DNA of 64,000 bases, taken from the NCBI GenBank assembly GCA_964447495.1, contig CAYUTF010000005.1, forward strand, positions 2,240 to 66,239, written 5' to 3'. How positions within the stretch are numbered: position 1 is the first letter of the stretch; each line of letters starts with the position of its first letter. This DNA comes from an uncultured archaeon. Its GTDB lineage: Archaea > Asgardarchaeota > Lokiarchaeia > Sigyniarchaeales > SOKP01. The position numbers and the translations under genes were made by a program. Below, in pieces: positions 13,566 to 53,154 of this stretch. A model generated the notes under the pieces. That model was not told where the DNA came from, did no database searches, and worked only from the letters and a program-made list of their open reading frames with translations.

Positions 13566-14006
13566 TTATTTAGGATTAAATGGGCCAAGTTCTTTAATGT
13601 GATTTGTAAATTCAGTTATTATTTCTGCAAAACGTTTTCCTTCAGAAGCACTAACCCATTCTAATCGAATTCTCTTAGGATCTATTCCAAGTTGTTTAAT
13701 TATAATATTATGCAATCTGTTAAATCTTTCTTGTGCATACTCATTCCCAGAAATGTAATGACAATCGCCAATATGGCACCCACTTATTAAAACACCATCT
13801 GCCCCATCATTCAAAGCTTTCAATACAAAAGATGGGTCGACTCTACCCGAACACATTACTCGAATTATGCGAATATTAGGAGGATATTGAAATCGTGAAA
13901 CCCCGGCTAAATCTGCTCCTGCATAGGAACACCAATTACAGCAAAATACCAAAATTTGGGGCTCAAATTTAGTTGCTTTTGATTTTCCTTTTGTTTTTGA
14001 CATCAA
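13566..14006 (-). CDS. mvhD: MvhD-like (methyl-viologen-reducing hydrogenase delta subunit family) [2Fe-2S] protein, all-Cys form
   Basis: [15 protein letters not shown] ... [10 protein letters not shown] ... [11 protein letters not shown] are MvhD hallmarks. The likely true start is ATG 14003-14001, overlapping the hdrA TGA stop (TGATG) and preceded by GGAGGGTGA. Confidence 0.85.
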
Positions 14007-19495: not shown

Positions 19496-20996
19496 TTAGA
19501 TTTCTTATTTTATCATAGGGACTCTTACAATTATTTCGTTTAGTACCCCCAATTTTTTCCACTAAAAATAACCCAGGCTTGACTTCTTTGAGGCTTTTAG
19601 ATTCAATATCTCCATTTTTCACTAACTCATTATAGATAGTGTCCGCCTCTTTGGTCCGCGTAATTACTGAAGACCACCCATCTTGAGACCCAATGGAGCC
19701 TACTGAAAAGTCTGCATAATCGGATGTTAAATCCTCACAATAATGGCAACTGTCCCGAGCATATTTCTTTACCTCTTTGAGTGGAACATCTAATTGCTCT
19801 CCAGATTTTAATCGAATGATAAACTTTCCACCTCCAATATTCATCTTAGTCAATTCATTAATATCCTTGTCGAATTGTTCCTTAGCTAGTTGAATGATTC
19901 CCTCATATGGAAATGATTCCATACAGAAGAGCCCTATCTTGTATTTAATATTTTTAAAGAACGGAAGTCCGCTCGGAAAAAGAGTACCTTTCTCTAAAGC
20001 CTTCATCATACAAGGAACCCCTACAAAAGCAATTTTTTCATACTTTTTTGCCTGATCGATGATCGACAAGGACGGAGAATTCGCATATTTCGTGCCCGCC
20101 GTCTTATAGAGTTCCTTCACATTCTCAATAATTACCGGTTCTGGTTTCCATAGTTGATCTGAATGTTGTACTGCAATTACTGCATCAACAAGGTTTTTTT
20201 TCAATAAATATTCGGCGATGGTAGTAACGATCCCTCCATCTTGACGTACTTTTATGATCTCGTCATTCTTTGTGCTTCCCGAATAGGTGCCAATATACCC
20301 TCCAATTTTATCTGACCAATTCAAATTTTTATCTAACTTCTTAATCGCTTCATTCATTTGGTCTATAGAAAAGGAACGAGGGCAGACTGTAAAGCATAAC
20401 CCACACTTCATGCATACATTATCGTCGATTTTAAGCGTATTCGCATCAACCTCGATCGCATTTACAGGACATATGGCAGCACACCAACCGCATTGACAGC
20501 ACGCACCAGCATCATATACGATGGAAACGGGTTCAAAATAGTGTTCAATAAAAGCGGGTTCAAGTTCTTTAACTTGATATCGATAAAAATACTCTTTTAC
20601 CTCGACTTCCTTCTCTTCTCCTTTAATTTTTTTAGTGACCTTTTTGATTTTTACTTCAACAAGTTCCTTTACATATCCCTGCTCTTTTAAGTATATCACA
20701 TCTCGGATAACATTTTCTGGGGGAAATTCCTTGATAACATCCATAATCTCTTCTAAAAATAAGGGTTCTTTGCCTCTTAAATACTCTAAGACGATTTTAC
20801 GCTCCGTTTCAGCATCAACCATAGCATCCAAAATTGCATAGTATTCTTGTTCCCCATATTTTCCTGCTTCAAGAATTTCGTCCTTAGCTTCATAGAAAGC
20901 GCGGATCTGAAAGTTCTTTGACGCTTCATAGGTGGCATCCATCAATTCTTTGGGAGACACCCCTTCAAATAACTTACTATTTACTATTTGAACCAT
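19488..20996 (-). CDS. FrhB/FdhB-family protein with an N-terminal extension of about 150 aa, paralog 1
   Basis: CCQCGWCAAICPVNAI / CMKCGLCFTVCP, VRQDGGIVTTIAEYLL, VGVPCMMKAL, and CHYCEDLTSDYADFSVGSIG. The N-terminal extension has no recognised motif. Confidence 0.75.
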   Translation of the reverse strand: MVQIVNSKLFEGVSPKELMDATYEASKNFQIRAFYEAKDEILEAGKYGEQEYYAILDAMVDAETERKIVLEYLRGKEPLFLEEIMDVIKEFPPENVIRDVIYLKEQGYVKELVEVKIKKVTKKIKGEEKEVEVKEYFYRYQVKELEPAFIEHYFEPVSIVYDAGACCQCGWCAAICPVNAIEVDANTLKIDDNVCMKCGLCFTVCPRSFSIDQMNEAIKKLDKNLNWSDKIGGYIGTYSGSTKNDEIIKVRQDGGIVTTIAEYLLKKNLVDAVIAVQHSDQLWKPEPVIIENVKELYKTAGTKYANSPSLSIIDQAKKYEKIAFVGVPCMMKALEKGTLFPSGLPFFKNIKYKIGLFCMESFPYEGIIQLAKEQFDKDINELTKMNIGGGKFIIRLKSGEQLDVPLKEVKKYARDSCHYCEDLTSDYADFSVGSIGSQDGWSSVITRTKEADTIYNELVKNGDIESKSLKEVKPGLFLVEKIGGTKRNNCKSPYDKIRNLSE

Positions 20997-21130
20997 TGAG
21001 TCTTCATTTTAAATTTTTTTCTTAAAAAATCTAATTTTTACTACTATTTTCCAACTAGCTCCCTCCTGAGCAAGGAGTGTTATCTTATAACCAAAATTTT
21101 CTTATAAGAATCATTCAATGGGAGCTGATA
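20997..21130 (-). promoter_or_regulatory. Candidate SECIS-bearing 3' region of the hdrA-vhuD selenoprotein pair
   Basis: Minus-strand RNA ...CAGCUCCCAUUGAAUGAUUCUUAUAAGAAAAUUUUGGUUAUAAGAUAACACUCCUUGCUCAGGAGGGAGCUAGUUGG... Complementary pairs read directly: AGCUCCC/GGGAGCU, UCUUAUAA/UUAUAAGA (A-rich 11-nt loop, AUGA one nt upstream), and CUCCU/AGGAG. Not folded computationally. Confidence 0.3.
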
Positions 21131-21557
21131 CTAATTCTTTGTTACCTTCTGTCAAATTAATCGGATTGGGACCAATTCTACTAATCTTTTCATACGCATC
21201 TTCAACACTTTTTACTAATTTTTCTGCTTCTGCACTACTACACCAATACATATTCGCTCGTTGATTACCAAAACCTCGTTTTTCAAGTATCCTGTTAGCA
21301 AGATCTATATGTTTTTGAGCTGTGAAATTACCGGCTTTAAATTGACACTCATTAGGTCTTCATCCTACAACCATTACTCCATCTGCACCTGTTTTAATCG
21401 CAAATAAAATATGCTTTACATCAACTCTCCCTGTGCATTTTACTTTGATTATTTTCACATCAGGAGTATATTTAAACCGCGAGACTCCTGCTAAATCTGC
21501 GGCACCATAACCTCATTTTAAGCATGCAAACATGATAATCTTATATTTATGTTCCAT
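21111..21557 (-). CDS. vhuD: VhuD/MvhD-like selenoprotein with two in-frame TGA (Sec) codons
   Basis: Absent from the ORF track. ATG 21557-21555, preceded by GGAGG (21570-21566), overlaps the hdrA stop (AATGGAACATAA). The translation is [46 protein letters not shown]...GADGVMVVG-U-RPNECQF... TGAs at 21515-21513 and 21362-21360 align to Cys in [15 protein letters not shown] and [12 protein letters not shown] of the paralog at 13566..14006. Confidence 0.75.
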
Positions 21558-23499
21558 TTTCTGCGCCTCCTTGTATAATTGCTTCAATTTCAGCATATAA
21601 TTGATAATCCCTATAATACTTTATATCAATTGCTTGAGTTGGACAACAAGATGCACATATACCACATCCGTCGCAATTAATGTCATCAACAACCGCTTTA
21701 TTATCTTTAATAGTTATGGCTCCTTTAGGACATTCCTTTTCACATCGCCCACATGAAATACATAAATCAGGGTTAATTTCAGCAATTATCAATTCAAGAT
21801 CAATTTCACCTGAGGATGTTAGCTCAACTACTTTACTAGCAGCAGCTCTCGCTTGAGATACTGAATAAGCAATATCTTTTGGTCCCTGTGCAAATCCTGC
21901 GATAAATATCCCTTTTGTTTTCGTTTCTTGCGGCATTAATCCAAAATGCGATTCTGTCAAAAAACCATTTTTATCGACATCTAAATTTAGTACTTTGGCA
22001 ATTTGCTGAGTTCCGCGAGAAGGGAGTGCTGCAGTTGATAAGACCACTAAATCTGCATCAATTTTAATAATTTCATCAGTTAGAGAAGAATAAACCCTTA
22101 TTTCAACATTTTTGGTATCAGGGTTTTCTGTAATGCCACCAACTTTTCCACGAATCATCCGAATATCTGAATCTTTTGCCCGTTGGTAATATTCTTCGAA
22201 TCCTTTTTCATTGGTTCTAATGTCAATATAACAGATCGTTATATTAGCGTCGAGTATTTCCTCTTTAAGTAATTTTGCATTTTTGAGAGCCAGCATACAA
22301 CATACTCCGCTACAATAAGTCCTTTCGGTGTCACGGCTGCCAACACATTGGATAAATACAATCTCTTTTGGTTTTTTTAAATCAGATATTCGAGCGATGT
22401 GACCTTCTAATGGACCGTTCGGTGCTAACATTCTCTCAAGTTGGGCTTGATTTATAACATTATCATACTCACCATATCCATACTCACCCATAGGCTCATA
22501 TATGTCCCACCCTGTAGCAATTATTATAGACCCTACTTTAAAATTTACCTCTTCTGGCACTTGGCTAAAATCTATGGCATTTAGCTCACAAACATCAACA
22601 CAACTGAAGCATTCAACACAAGTATCTCTATGAATATCATATAAAAAAGGTACCGCTTGACCAAATGCTATATCAATTGTTTTCCGAACCCCAAGATGTT
22701 CGTCAAAATAATTGGTTATGAACACTGGGCAGACCTCCGAACATGCTCCACACCCATTACAATCATTATTAATGAATCGGGGCATCTTTTCTACCGTGAT
22801 TTCATAATTTCCGACATATCCCTTAACGTTTCTAACAAAACTATAGCTCAATAGTTCTATATTTTCATGACGGTTAACTTCTAACATCTTAGGACCACAT
22901 ATTCAGATGCTACAGTCATCTGTTGGAAATGTTCTGTCCAATTGAGCCATTCTTCCACCAATTGTAGTATTTTTATCAACTAAATATACCTTAATTCCCT
23001 GATTCGCTAAGTCTAAGGCAGCATTCATCCCTGCAATACCTCCACCAACAATTAAACATGCTTTTTCTATTGGAACTGTTCTTATAGGTATTATCTCTAA
23101 AGTTTTAGCTCTTTCTATACCGCTTTTGACTAAAATTTTTGCTTTTTCTGTTGCTTCCTCTTTATCAGCGGTACACCAACTGCAATGTTCTCTTACATTA
23201 ACCATCTGGAAGTAATAGGGGCTTAAATCCGTTTTTGAAATTGAAGCCCGATATATGGGTTCATGTGTCCTTGGAGTTCACGCAGACGCAACTACTCTCG
23301 TTAATTTCTTTTCTTGAATATCTTGGATTATTTCATTTTGTCCACTTTCAGTGCAAAGGAATGCATTAGTTTTGGCAACCACTACGTCATCAAAAGTTTT
23401 AGCAAATTCAACAAGTTCATTACAATCAACTTTACTTCGAATATTTATGCCTCATTGACACGCGTAAAAACCAATCCGATGCTGGGTAGTTTTTTCCAT
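21547..23499 (-). CDS. hdrA: Heterodisulfide reductase subunit A (HdrA) selenoprotein with three in-frame TGA (Sec) codons
   Basis: Track ORFs 21547..22887 and 22903..23205 plus untracked 23206..23499 form one 651-codon frame (ATG 23499-23497, TAA 21549-21547). TGAs fall at 23454-23452 (codon 16), 23280-23278 (codon 74) and 22905-22903 (codon 199). They align to Cys of the 14003..17113 paralog: YACQ-U-GINI vs LVCH-C-GINI; VASA-U-TPRTHE vs [10 protein letters not shown]; DDCSI-U-ICGPKM vs [12 protein letters not shown]. Confidence 0.85.
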
Positions 23500-23952
23500 C
23501 TTTTTGAGTTTTCTCACCTCATTTTTTACATTAATGTCTAAATATCCGAATCTATAAAAGTTTTTCACCTTTAGATCAATTTCTTTAATATAACTATTTT
23601 TATAGTTCGAATATATGAATGTTTTAAATTTCTATATTAATCATTTACATTTTAATGATATTTATACTTATTAATTTATTTATTATACCTTATCCGTTAT
23701 TCTTTAAATGTTATTTTACAGAATGGAAAATTTTGCAATATATTGATTAACTCCAGATTGAAAAGTAACATTTATTTAAAGCAATTCATCATGACAAAAA
23801 TCAATGTTTAATCCTAAAAATAAGAGATCTTATAATTTATATCAATGAGATTTTAAAAGTTGAAAATCTAAATATAAATAGCTATAAATTAGTGAGAATT
23901 TTTTTTTTTATTTCTTGTATTTAATATCAGTAATTAGATTCTTAGAAATCAT

Positions 23953-24987
23953 ATGATAAGAAAAGTCCTTATAAAGTATATTATCATTCTTATTGTGTTA
24001 TGTTTGCCTCTATTTGGATTGGTTGGACTAATAATTAGTAGAAATATTATTACTCCAAATGATACATTTTTTGTAATCAGTAAGGGTGAAACTCCAGATA
24101 TTAACATCATTAGTTGGAGGTTGAGAGTGGAGGGTCAGGTTAATAATAGTTTACTCCTTGATTATTCTAGTTTAATATCACAACCATCAACAGAGGTTGT
24201 TGCTACTCTACAGTGTGTAGAAGGGCCGTCTGGAACCGCATTATGGAAAGGAATATTAATTAGAGAATTATTGGATTTAGCAGAAGTAAAAGGAAATGTG
24301 GTTGATGTGGTTTTTTATGCTGCAGATGGTTATTCGTCATCTCTCACTATTGAAGAAATAAATAATGATGATGTTCTATTAGCATATGAAATGAATGGCG
24401 AACCTTTACCAGCAGAACAAGGTTATCCCCTTAGAGTTGTTGCTCCTAACCATTTAGGATATAAATGGGTGAAATGGGTTGTAAGAGTAGAGGTAGTCGA
24501 TTATGATTATATAGGTTTTTGGGAGAGCCGAGGATGGAATGATGATGCATACAGTACTCCTTTTTCAAATTGGATTATACATGCTTTATTGCTGGCAATC
24601 TCTTTCATTTTTGGAGGATTTGCTGTAATATCGGGATTAAAAAGATCTCCAATTACAAATTATTTTCGCGATCTTCCCAAATTCTTCAATGTAAAGTTTC
24701 ATATAACGGTTTCTATAATGTATTTCCTAATATCTATAGGTACATTCTCTTATTGGATTATATCAACGATTTTAAACCGAGGAGCGGTATTTTTCACCAT
24801 CCATGGGTTATTAGCCTTACTCTCTATTATATTGTTAATACCAGGCGTAATTACAGGCATAAAAAAGAAAAAGAAAAGAAACCCGAATAAAAAGACATGG
24901 CATTATAAATGGACCATGAATTCTATTTATGTATTTTTATCTACTATTATTTTAGGCTTCTTATTGGCATTTACTGGGTTATTTTGA
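23953..24987 (+). CDS. Molybdopterin-dependent oxidoreductase (MsrP/YedY, sulfite-oxidase family) fused to a C-terminal multi-TM domain
   Basis: Moco-domain motifs WRLRVEGQV, ATLQCVEGPSGTALWKGI, EMNGEPLPAEQGYPLRVVAPNHLGYKWVKWV. These are followed by about 4 TM helices carrying several His residues (IIHALL, KFHITV, TIHGLL). Confidence 0.75.
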   Translation: MIRKVLIKYIIILIVLCLPLFGLVGLIISRNIITPNDTFFVISKGETPDINIISWRLRVEGQVNNSLLLDYSSLISQPSTEVVATLQCVEGPSGTALWKGILIRELLDLAEVKGNVVDVVFYAADGYSSSLTIEEINNDDVLLAYEMNGEPLPAEQGYPLRVVAPNHLGYKWVKWVVRVEVVDYDYIGFWESRGWNDDAYSTPFSNWIIHALLLAISFIFGGFAVISGLKRSPITNYFRDLPKFFNVKFHITVSIMYFLISIGTFSYWIISTILNRGAVFFTIHGLLALLSIILLIPGVITGIKKKKKRNPNKKTWHYKWTMNSIYVFLSTIILGFLLAFTGLF

Positions 24988-33779: not shown

Positions 33780-34316
33780 ATGAGTAAAGGAGAATATCAA
33801 TTCAAAATTTCAGTAGTAGGAGATGGAGCGGTAGGCAAAACTTCTCTTATTAAAATGTTTACAAAAGGAATATTTGAAAAAGATTATATCAAAACTATTG
33901 GCGCGCAATTTTCACGATTTGAAAAAGTAATAGAGAATGATAGCGTAAATCTAGTCTTCTGGGATATCGCTGGTCAAGAAGATTTTGATTTTCTTCAGCC
34001 ACTATTTTATAAAGAGAGTAAAGCTTCTATTGTAGTCTATAGTCTTGAAGATAATGATTTAGGTAGAGAGAGTTTTAATCATATAAAGAACTGGGTTCAA
34101 AATCTAAGAAAATATTGCGGAGAAATCCCCCTGATTTTATTTGCTAATAAGGTAGATTTAATAGAGGAAAATGAATTAAATTTACTGGATATAAAGAACA
34201 TAGCTGAAAAACATAATTTTTTTAGCTTTTCCTTGACTTCTGCGAAAACAGGCCAGGGAGTTAATGAAGCATTTAATCTAATCATCCATGAATTATATAA
34301 TAAGTATAGAGAGTAA
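33780..34316 (+). CDS. Rab/Ras-like small GTPase
   Basis: G1 GDGAVGKTS, switch I YIKTIGAQF, G3 WDIAGQE, G4 NKVDL, G5 TSAKTG. There is no C-terminal prenylation Cys. Confidence 0.9.
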   Translation: MSKGEYQFKISVVGDGAVGKTSLIKMFTKGIFEKDYIKTIGAQFSRFEKVIENDSVNLVFWDIAGQEDFDFLQPLFYKESKASIVVYSLEDNDLGRESFNHIKNWVQNLRKYCGEIPLILFANKVDLIEENELNLLDIKNIAEKHNFFSFSLTSAKTGQGVNEAFNLIIHELYNKYRE

Positions 34317-37918: not shown

Positions 37919-38839
37919 GTGCTCCCGTACTTGAAAATTGCATTGATAGGGCTTTCAGGTTGTGGTAAAACAAGCCTCTACTCTGTTGCTTTTGCGGAAA
38001 AAAGTCCAGAAGACACCAAAAAGTTTAGTCCAACAATTTTATATGAAACTCGAAGGCATCCCTTTTTAGGATTACAAGTTGGCATATTTGACTTTGGAGG
38101 GCAAGAACAATATAGAAAAGAGTATATGGAAAAGCCAGAAGTGTTTAGAGGTACTGATATCTTAATTCCTATTGTGGATTTACATGATCCTAAATCTTTT
38201 AAGCAAGCAAAGGAGTATTTTGAAGGGTTATTAAATATTTATCGAAAAAATAATGAAAAGCCGAAAATCTTTCTATTCTTGCATAAATATGACGTTGAGA
38301 ATTATCAAAAAGAACTTCTCGATACAAACGTTAAAATGGCTAAGGAAGCTTTATTAGATTTGTTCAAGGATTATGAGTTTGATTACAAGTTAACGAGTAT
38401 TTATTTACAAGATGAATTAGCTAAAATTTTCAGGGATATTTTAATATCTTCCTATTCAGAGCTAAAAACTCATGTTGAGAAAGCAGAGAAGCAGTTAGAA
38501 GAAATTAAAGCAAAAATTATTATTTCTGATGTATCGGGAAATGTCATAGTACATAATGTTCAAGGCGTGAGTAGTGGATTAACATTAAGGGGAGATTTAA
38601 GAGACTTTATCAATGCTTGCAATACAGTCCGAGAAAATCTTTTTATGTCAGATTCTGCTGAGTTTAAAGGGAGAAATGATGATGGAAAAGAGATTGAACT
38701 CTACATCTTCAAGTATATCATTTCTGTTCTTGTAATGAAATCTGGGGAGATTGAACGTGAATCTCAAGATAAACTTAATATGTTATTGAATGACATGAAA
38801 TTATTTGCTGATTTAATAATTTCAGCCCACACTGAGTAG
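37919..38839 (+). CDS. Rag/Gtr1-like GTPase with a C-terminal roadblock domain
   Basis: G1 GLSGCGKTS, G3 DFGGQEQY, and an atypical G4 HKYD (compare HKMD of Rag GTPases). TSIYLQDELAKIFRDIL resembles the Rag TSIWDETLYKAW segment. The C-terminal roughly 120 aa show an alpha-beta roadblock pattern. Confidence 0.7.
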   Translation: MLPYLKIALIGLSGCGKTSLYSVAFAEKSPEDTKKFSPTILYETRRHPFLGLQVGIFDFGGQEQYRKEYMEKPEVFRGTDILIPIVDLHDPKSFKQAKEYFEGLLNIYRKNNEKPKIFLFLHKYDVENYQKELLDTNVKMAKEALLDLFKDYEFDYKLTSIYLQDELAKIFRDILISSYSELKTHVEKAEKQLEEIKAKIIISDVSGNVIVHNVQGVSSGLTLRGDLRDFINACNTVRENLFMSDSAEFKGRNDDGKEIELYIFKYIISVLVMKSGEIERESQDKLNMLLNDMKLFADLIISAHTE

Positions 38840-52494: not shown

Positions 52495-53154
52495 TCAATG
52501 AATTGCTGAAACTAATTGGTTCTTGTATAGTTGCTTAAATACTAAACTCAAAATCTCTTCGAATGAATCTAAGATTCCCTCTCCGTTAAGAGCAATGGTG
52601 TTTTTGATATTAATATTCTTGTATTTATAATAATTAATTTGATCCAGGAATACTTTTGGATTGTATTTACCTTGTACGTCCTGTTTGTTAAATGCGATAA
52701 TTTTTGGGATATCTTCAAATTTGTCTTCATAAAAAGAGCATAATTCATTCCAAGAGGTTAAAGTTCGGTTGAAGGCCTTTTTTTGAGAATCTGCGACAAA
52801 GATTATCCCATCAATTGCTCTTAGGGTAATTGGGCGGGTCACAATATAGAAGTCCTGACCTGTGGTGCTGTAAATATGAATTTTTAATAACCATAGTTCA
52901 TTTTGAAAAGAAATACTACCATAATCAAAAAATAAAGTACGACGTACTGAACTTTCTATTGATTCTAGTTTATTTTCCATTCCAAAATGCTTAAAAAGGG
53001 ATTTAATAGAAGTTGTTTTCCCTGATAAAGCAGGACCGTAATAGACTATTTTAATCTGTATATATTTTTCTAACCAATCAATAATCATAATCAAATAATA
53101 TCTATTTGTTATAATTCTAAAAATAGGTTTATAAAAGACTATTTTTTCAGTCAA
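52495..53154 (-). CDS. MglA-like small GTPase
   Basis: KIVYYGPALSGKTTSIKSL (MglA: KIVYYGPGLCGKTT), RTLFFDY, YSTTGQDFY, DGIIFVADSQ, FNKQDV. The true start is probably an internal Met (MIIDWLEKY...). Confidence 0.8.
   Translation of the reverse strand: MTEKIVFYKPIFRIITNRYYLIMIIDWLEKYIQIKIVYYGPALSGKTTSIKSLFKHFGMENKLESIESSVRRTLFFDYGSISFQNELWLLKIHIYSTTGQDFYIVTRPITLRAIDGIIFVADSQKKAFNRTLTSWNELCSFYEDKFEDIPKIIAFNKQDVQGKYNPKVFLDQINYYKYKNINIKNTIALNGEGILDSFEEILSLVFKQLYKNQLVSAIH

Follow-up and report, generated by a model that had tools for sequence, protein, structure and literature searches.

How does a ribosome tell the UGA that ends a gene from other UGAs that the same gene reads as selenocysteine (Sec)? 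The question is raised by a 64,000-nucleotide stretch of DNA from an uncultured archaeon (contig CAYUTF010000005.1, positions 2,240 to 66,239; hereafter 'the window'), in which a gene of the vhuD/mvhD family on the minus strand (21111..21557) holds two internal TGA codons and closes with a third, and lies directly downstream of an hdrA gene that is itself interrupted by TGA codons. The locus is very probably an hdrA-vhuD selenoprotein pair of the Asgard (Promethearchaeota/Lokiarchaeia) type, served by one eukaryote-like Sec insertion sequence (SECIS) element of the kind called lokiSECIS, whose core UGA acts as the terminating codon.

The vhuD gene comprises 148 codons and a terminal TGA. Translation of the minus strand from 21557 to 21099 gave MEHKYKIIMFACLK followed by a stop, then GYGAADLAG and onwards to GVMVVG, a second stop, RPNECQF and onwards to ELVSAPIE, a third stop, FL and a last stop. 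Before the end of this frame the stops were TGA at codon 15 (21515-21513), codon 66 (21362-21360) and codon 149 (21113-21111), with no others in the gene, and the codon-149 TGA was directly followed by TTC TTA TAA, an arrangement that a first-pass annotation made from the letters alone had described correctly. That annotation had also proposed an unlisted minus-strand homolog of MvhD/VhuD, 148 amino acids (aa) long if the TGAs are read through; the program-made list of open reading frames (ORFs) held only a 46-aa fragment at this place. The proposal was borne out by the translation and by a full-length family match: with cysteine (Cys) put in place of both internal TGAs, the translated protein matched PF02662 (FlpD/MvhD) with E=3.4e-42 and 143.8 bits (cut-off 22.3 bits), residues 7-129 covering profile positions 1-123 of 123, which cannot be a chance match. 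The same frame was followed in 64 orthologous Asgard loci, and the window protein was at most 85-89% identical to any sequence retrieved.

Both internal TGAs fell on positions that hold Sec or Cys in relatives. The best solved relative, chain K of Protein Data Bank (PDB) entry 9sfi ('F420-non-reducing hydrogenase subunit delta', E=7.4e-36), carries X (Sec) at precisely the same two places, in FVCYQ-X-GYGAADLAG and VAG-X-KPNECAF, corresponding in the window to FACLK-U-GYGAADLAG (UGA at 21513..21515, minus strand) and VVG-U-RPNEC (UGA at 21360..21362, minus strand). We take 9sfi, pending confirmation of the link between entry and paper, to be the structure from the 2026 cryo-electron microscopy study of the M. 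maripaludis Hdr-Vhu-Fwd complex (PMC13518236). The Cys-type MvhD structures 5odc_D and 9sw2_D carry Cys at both positions, as does a Cys-type mvhD paralog (38% identical) elsewhere in the window (13566..14006, minus strand), which lies downstream of a 1036-aa Cys-type hdrA. In two protein alignments the set C12, C/U15, C41, C/U66 and C71 formed invariant columns. The TGAs had been predicted to replace Cys residues of this paralog, and both do align to its Cys; the comparison suggested with methanococcal VhuD, which carries two Sec, placed the Sec residues of 9sfi_K at the same two positions. A lack of agreement between conserved Cys positions and TGAs in homologs, named at the time as an observation that would speak against the prediction, was looked for, and the positions coincided in 9sfi_K, 5odc_D and the paralog.

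A genome scan for vhuD, using one genome per species, yielded 80 loci, the 64 closest of which (62-85% protein identity) all came from Promethearchaeota or other Asgard metagenome-assembled genomes (MAGs). TGA was present at both Sec positions, with the frame otherwise open, in 64/64 of these loci. A protein search returned 264 relatives, of which 18 were aligned, and all 18 are stored in the databases with tryptophan (Trp) at both Sec positions and at the terminal TGA. Where the DNA of two of these homologs (L001 and L004) was read, every 'W' was a TGA; the Trp residues result from gene calling on short metagenomic contigs under genetic code 4. Outside the closest loci, the use of Sec in MvhD was seen to vary with lineage (L071-L086): Methanocaldococcus and one Methanothermococcus were Sec/Sec, another Methanothermococcus and Desulfobacterales were Sec/Cys (Sec at the first position only), and a Borrarchaeota MAG was Cys/Sec (Sec at the second position only); Methanocaldococcus and all Lokiarchaeia-type loci use both positions.

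The SECIS element was located at the very end of the gene. On the minus strand its AUGA core occupies 21111..21114, the UGA at 21113-21111 being the vhuD stop, and the main hairpin follows at 21079..21110, consisting of a 5' arm UUCUUAUAA (21110-21102), a loop GAAAAUUUUGG (21101-21091), a 3' arm UUAUAAGAU (21090-21082) and the trinucleotide AAC (21081-21079). The nine stem positions comprise eight Watson-Crick pairs and a basal U.U, and the loop has 11 nucleotides (nt), is A-rich in its first five and ends in G. By pattern scan the element was found in the window and in all 62 close Asgard loci; among these 63 loci the last loop nucleotide was G in 63/63 and the loop length 11 nt in 62/63, the stem was followed by GAC (54 loci), AAC (8) or GAT (1), and the vhuD stop lay 0-16 nt from the AUGA in 63/63. 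When 65 sequences were aligned with MAFFT, the ATGA was invariant, 94.9% of the stem cells were paired, and seven of the nine pairs had changed on both sides; RNAalifold, run unguided, recovered the stem. A covariance model built from this alignment (R1) scored 83.3 bits at 21114..21079 of the 64-kb window. No second SECIS was found in the window by either the pattern scan or R1, the other match listed (16.1 bits, E=0.47) being the plus strand of the same hairpin. R1 gave exactly one match per Asgard locus, including loci L068 and L069, which were not used in training and scored 48-50 bits, and found no SECIS in the 3-kb upstream, hdrA-bearing flanks of 64 loci. The Sec codons of the window lie 401 and 248 nt (vhuD) and 2340, 2166 and 1791 nt (hdrA) from this single element, and in all loci the distance between the AUGA and the Sec codons inside vhuD is 236-437 nt. 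The lokiSECIS was described as an AUGA, a nine-position stem, an 11-nt loop with an A-rich start and an ultraconserved final G, and a GA/AA, placed next to the stop (Mariotti et al. 2016, PMC4989117), and in its sequence and predicted pairing the window element matches this description feature by feature. A contig labelled as bacterial (L070, DATKTP010000045.1, Ca. Deferrimicrobium sp.) was also observed to hold a two-Sec VhuD and a SECIS-like element of the form AUGA-stem-GAC with 9/9 pairs, scored by R1 at 29.6 bits (E=6e-4); this contig is probably either mis-binned archaeal DNA or horizontally transferred.

It is possible, with moderate support, that the SECIS of hdrA-vhuD forms a three-way junction and not just a simple hairpin. 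In the minimum free energy (MFE) fold the element would extend over 21058..21125 of the minus strand, with a helix I between 21125-21120 (GCUCCC, in the last vhuD codons) and 21063-21058 (GGGAGC) and a hairpin III between 21077-21073 and 21067-21063; G21063 figures in both helices and can be used by only one of them. The consensus of hairpin III, CCUUGCRAAGG, is situated between the GAC/AAC and helix I (alignment of L007-L069). Helix I was 79.7% paired, with a covariation score of 0.344 as against at most 0.194 when the partners were slid, and a column-shuffle control was also favourable; in a per-sequence shuffle test helix I and hairpin III gave 6.5 versus 5.4 bp, and RNAalifold failed to recover these additional helices. 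The same three-way layout was present in the MFE folds of Methanocaldococcus (L078, L081) and of the divergent Asgard locus L068, and hairpin III alone in L080, L070 and L072. In the main text of the two papers on Asgard selenoproteins (PMC4989117 and PMC11227280), only 'a short extra stem' is mentioned, for methanococcal VhuD.

The more distant Sec codons belong to hdrA, a selenoprotein gene of 650 codons ending in TAA (21547..23499, minus strand), with Sec at codons 16 (23454-23452), 74 (23280-23278) and 199 (22905-22903). Its product matched the HdrA chain 9sfi_A with E=5e-201, the X (Sec) of that chain aligning to codon 199, which corresponds to Sec197 of M. maripaludis HdrA, and Cys residues aligning to codons 16 and 74. 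Many Asgard HdrA orthologs were seen to hold a fourth Sec (FL-U-TESGQ), at the place of which the window gene has Cys49. A relationship of HdrA Sec16 and Sec74 to VhuD Sec15 and Sec66 was considered, as HdrA's N-terminal domain looks MvhD-like, and was not supported (BLASTP E=0.65 and 3.6; hhalign probability 1.3%). Upstream of hdrA, non-coding DNA very rich in AT extends for about 450 nt (23500-23950, minus strand), up to a divergent molybdopterin-oxidoreductase gene (23953-24987); neither a SECIS-like element nor a match to Rfam was found in this stretch.

The two cistrons are closely joined. According to the first-pass annotation, the vhuD ATG lies inside the last hdrA codons and follows a GGAGG, so that vhuD overlaps the Sec-type hdrA, and this was what the coordinates gave: the overlap is 11 nt (21547..21557, minus strand), from the ATG at 21557 within the final hdrA codons GAA AAT GGA ACA TAA to the hdrA stop TAA at 21549-21547, and the Shine-Dalgarno-like GGAGG (21566..21570, minus strand) stands 8 nt upstream of the ATG, within hdrA codons. 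The 11-nt overlap was shared by the two closest relatives (L005 and L007), most other loci having a gap of 1-8 nt and a GGAGG in the final ...EGG codons of hdrA; GGAGG or GGTGG occupied the equivalent position in the majority of orthologous loci, and hdrA was directly upstream of vhuD in 63/63 loci. Initiation of vhuD is probably coupled to termination of hdrA through the overlap and the GGAGG inside hdrA. An alternative vhuD start at ATG 21596, in frame 13 codons upstream, with which vhuD and hdrA would overlap by 50 nt, was rejected, the orthologs beginning with MEHKY or MENxY and the GGAGG lying 8 nt before the start at 21557. The stop codon of hdrA, which the SECIS follows at a distance of some 430 nt, was TAA in 53 and TAG in 10 of the 63 loci and TGA in none; a UGA used as the hdrA stop would be recoded at this distance.

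The terminal UGA of vhuD has a different position, being itself the UGA of the AUGA core, and the question of how it is distinguished from the Sec UGAs, which the first-pass annotation had raised, can be answered with a minimal-distance model. The SECIS would fold at the 3' end of the hdrA-vhuD transcript and would recruit the archaeal Sec-specific elongation system, so that five UGAs located 248-2340 nt upstream (three in hdrA, two in vhuD) would be read as Sec. With the UGA at 21113-21111 in the A site, the next ~12 nt, which form the 5' arm of the stem, would already be in the mRNA channel and the kink-turn and stem would be unfolded. The core UGA would then terminate because the ribosome standing on it has already unwound the SECIS: no Sec would be delivered, the release factor would win, and the protein would have the C-terminus ...SAPIE, as expected from the minimal-distance rule. 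The same reasoning has been applied to Loki genes that end in UGA, with the use of the AUGA as stop explicit for VhuU.1 only (PMC4989117), compared with VhuD in 46/63 loci here, and the model in which the AUGA doubles as stop appears also in a later survey (PMC11227280); the comparative sequence data presented here reinforce it as the probable answer. One part of the earlier description has to be revised, namely the TAA two codons after the terminal TGA as a backup stop. This TAA, contained in UUCUUAUAA, is part of the SECIS stem and not a dedicated safety stop, and it was absent from that position in 10/46 orthologs with the core UGA in frame.

A less conventional answer would be that some ribosomes decode the core UGA as a third Sec, giving VhuD a C-terminal redox arm -E-U-F-L, similar to that of thioredoxin reductase and ending at the TAA of the stem. 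The core UGA was in frame and the first stop of vhuD in 46/63 loci, the frame after it closed within two or three codons in 43 of these 46 (after 2 codons in 37 loci and 3 in 6), and the residues preceding it (T/A-P-[IV]-E) were conserved, all of which is in favour of such a tail. Against this, the codons after the UGA are also the SECIS stem, and where the two 'tail' codons differ, the 3' arm has changed so as to compensate; what keeps ...E-UGA-x-Leu-stop conserved is therefore a constraint at the RNA level, and its conservation is not evidence for a translated tail. In the three remaining loci (L008, L023 and L048) the stem reads UUCUUACAA / UUCCUACAA, with CAA replacing UAA, and the frame runs on for 21-30 codons through the SECIS; the frame beyond the core UGA is not conserved. 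In the other 17/63 loci the vhuD stop preceded the AUGA by 4 nt (TAG), by 6, 15 or 16 nt (TAA) or by 3 nt (TGA), and the AUGA was then out of frame, so that the tail is dispensable. Such a tail is absent from the solved VhuD/MvhD chains, and a ribosome that has reached the core UGA must have melted the SECIS. Decoding of a third Sec thus appears improbable; if it were true, the same four bases would form the core of the kink-turn, serve as a stop codon and occasionally encode Sec, and VhuD would gain an -E-U-x-L redox tail.

Reading of UGA as a standard amino acid (Trp under code 4 or glycine (Gly) under code 25) would agree with the W stored at all three TGAs in the database homologs, but this explanation is left with hardly any probability. 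TGA is a normal stop in 8/34 of the Pfam-supported window genes, and a reassigned genetic code is therefore ruled out; the TGAs of vhuD stand at Cys/Sec positions and not at Trp or Gly positions, no in-frame TGAs at Trp or Gly positions were seen among the window ORFs, hdrA never stops at TGA whereas ordinary genes do, a conserved SECIS is present, and the lineage is Asgard, in which the Sec trait has been documented in 55.5% of genomes (PMC11227280). Just as improbable is a decayed pseudogene of the mvhD paralog with the TGAs as true stops: ORF callers find no gene at the locus and the Cys-type paralog is 7 kb away, but the same two TGAs, with no frameshifts or extra stops, recur in all 64 Asgard loci, whose protein identity is 62-85%, the covarying SECIS has been kept, and both positions are Sec in a solved structure.

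Several points weigh against an hdrA-vhuD selenoprotein pair with a lokiSECIS. Of the Sec machinery, neither the protein genes (EFsec, PSTK, SepSecS, SPS), looked for by Pfam scan of the 45 non-nested ORFs of at least 100 aa, nor tRNA-Sec was found within the 64-kb window, to which the search was limited; ARAGORN detected no tRNA of any kind in it. Rfam contained no matching family, there being no gathering-level match in the window and no SECIS family at 20900..23950 even at E<=10, so that the RNA is assigned from its description in the literature and from model R1. Finally, the window element has AA and not the canonical GA after the stem, as in 8/63 loci; this AUGA_AA variant has been reported specifically for Lokiarchaeia hdrA/frhD (Huang et al. 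2024, PMC11227280). Other features of the window are consistent with an Asgard origin, including a G+C content of 31.6% and three small GTPases of the Ras type (33780-34316, plus strand), the Gtr1/RagA type (37919-38839, plus strand) and the Arf/Roc type (52495-53154, minus strand), eukaryotic-signature proteins typical of Asgard archaea.

Selenoprotein pairs of HdrA and VhuD with a shared lokiSECIS have been described in Lokiarchaeota (Mariotti et al. 2016, PMC4989117), and hdrA-frhD with type I, eSECIS-like elements across Asgard archaea (Huang et al. 2024, PMC11227280). Like these, the window has a multi-Sec hdrA and, immediately downstream on the same strand, a two-Sec vhuD, the two genes overlapping or being separated by very little, and one SECIS only, after vhuD and abutting or overlapping its stop, with an hdrA stop that is never UGA. 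Unlike the full Loki HdrA set, the window hdrA has three of the five reported Sec positions, and its overlap with vhuD is 11 nt compared with 28 nt reported for HdrA.3-VhuD.3 (PMC4989117). Neither difference is essential; in every respect that was tested the locus agrees with the published system, and it is in other words an ordinary member of a kind already known from the 2016 and 2024 publications.

Similarities extend to the M. maripaludis VhuD (9sfi_K), which belongs to the same Pfam family, has Sec at the same two positions, is encoded next to hdrA and shows AUGA...GAC/AAC in its SECIS region. The two proteins differ in that identity is only ~47% and in that the Asgard protein has a variable C-terminal extension of ~15 residues; in addition, the methanococcal SECIS is of the archaeal GAA_A type, the methanococcal hdrA has an element of its own and a single Sec, unlike hdrA in the window, and hydrogenase genes are not found nearby in the window. 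With the eukaryotic type I SECIS the window element shares a kink-turn-type AUGA...GA core, an A-rich apical loop, the service of several upstream UGAs at a distance and a lack of recoding of UGAs that are too close (as cited in PMC4989117). It differs from eukaryotic elements in its shorter stem (nine positions), the absence of a match to the Rfam SECIS families, its location in a prokaryotic operon and its overlap with coding sequence, and no homolog of SBP2 is known in Asgard archaea (PMC4989117).

In the solved complexes the [2Fe-2S] cluster of VhuD/MvhD hands electrons from hydrogenase or formate dehydrogenase to the bifurcating flavin adenine dinucleotide (FAD) of HdrA (PMC6019823, PMC13518236), and by homology the window VhuD would be a [2Fe-2S] adaptor passing electrons to the bifurcating flavin of HdrA. 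Downstream of vhuD there are two FrhB-like genes, a gene for an HdrB/C-like CCG protein, the 1036-aa Cys-type HdrA gene and the Cys-type mvhD. No [NiFe] hydrogenase genes (vhuA/G/U) were found by Pfam scan among the window ORFs of at least 100 aa (45 non-nested ORFs, six shorter nested ones having been left out), and 'VhuD' is therefore used here as a family name and not as a demonstrated hydrogenase subunit; genes for a partner hydrogenase could be located elsewhere in the genome. The Cys-type pair is closely joined as well, the stop codon of its hdrA, TGA (14005-14003), overlapping the TTG/ATG with which mvhD starts (14003-14006, minus strand). In its use of TGA as a stop this hdrA differs from the Sec-type gene, and no SECIS follows the Cys-type pair.

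A doubly recoded gene that ORF callers had missed was recovered by a reader from the sequence alone, and the storage of its homologs with Trp at the UGAs amounts to a systematic mis-annotation by which the selenoprotein is hidden. At this locus five UGAs spread over 2.3 kb appear to be recoded by one eukaryote-like SECIS, whereas the UGA in its own core ends translation. The hdrA-vhuD SECIS system is relevant to the origin of eukaryotic Sec decoding, a picture that has been known since 2016 and that the present locus leaves unchanged.

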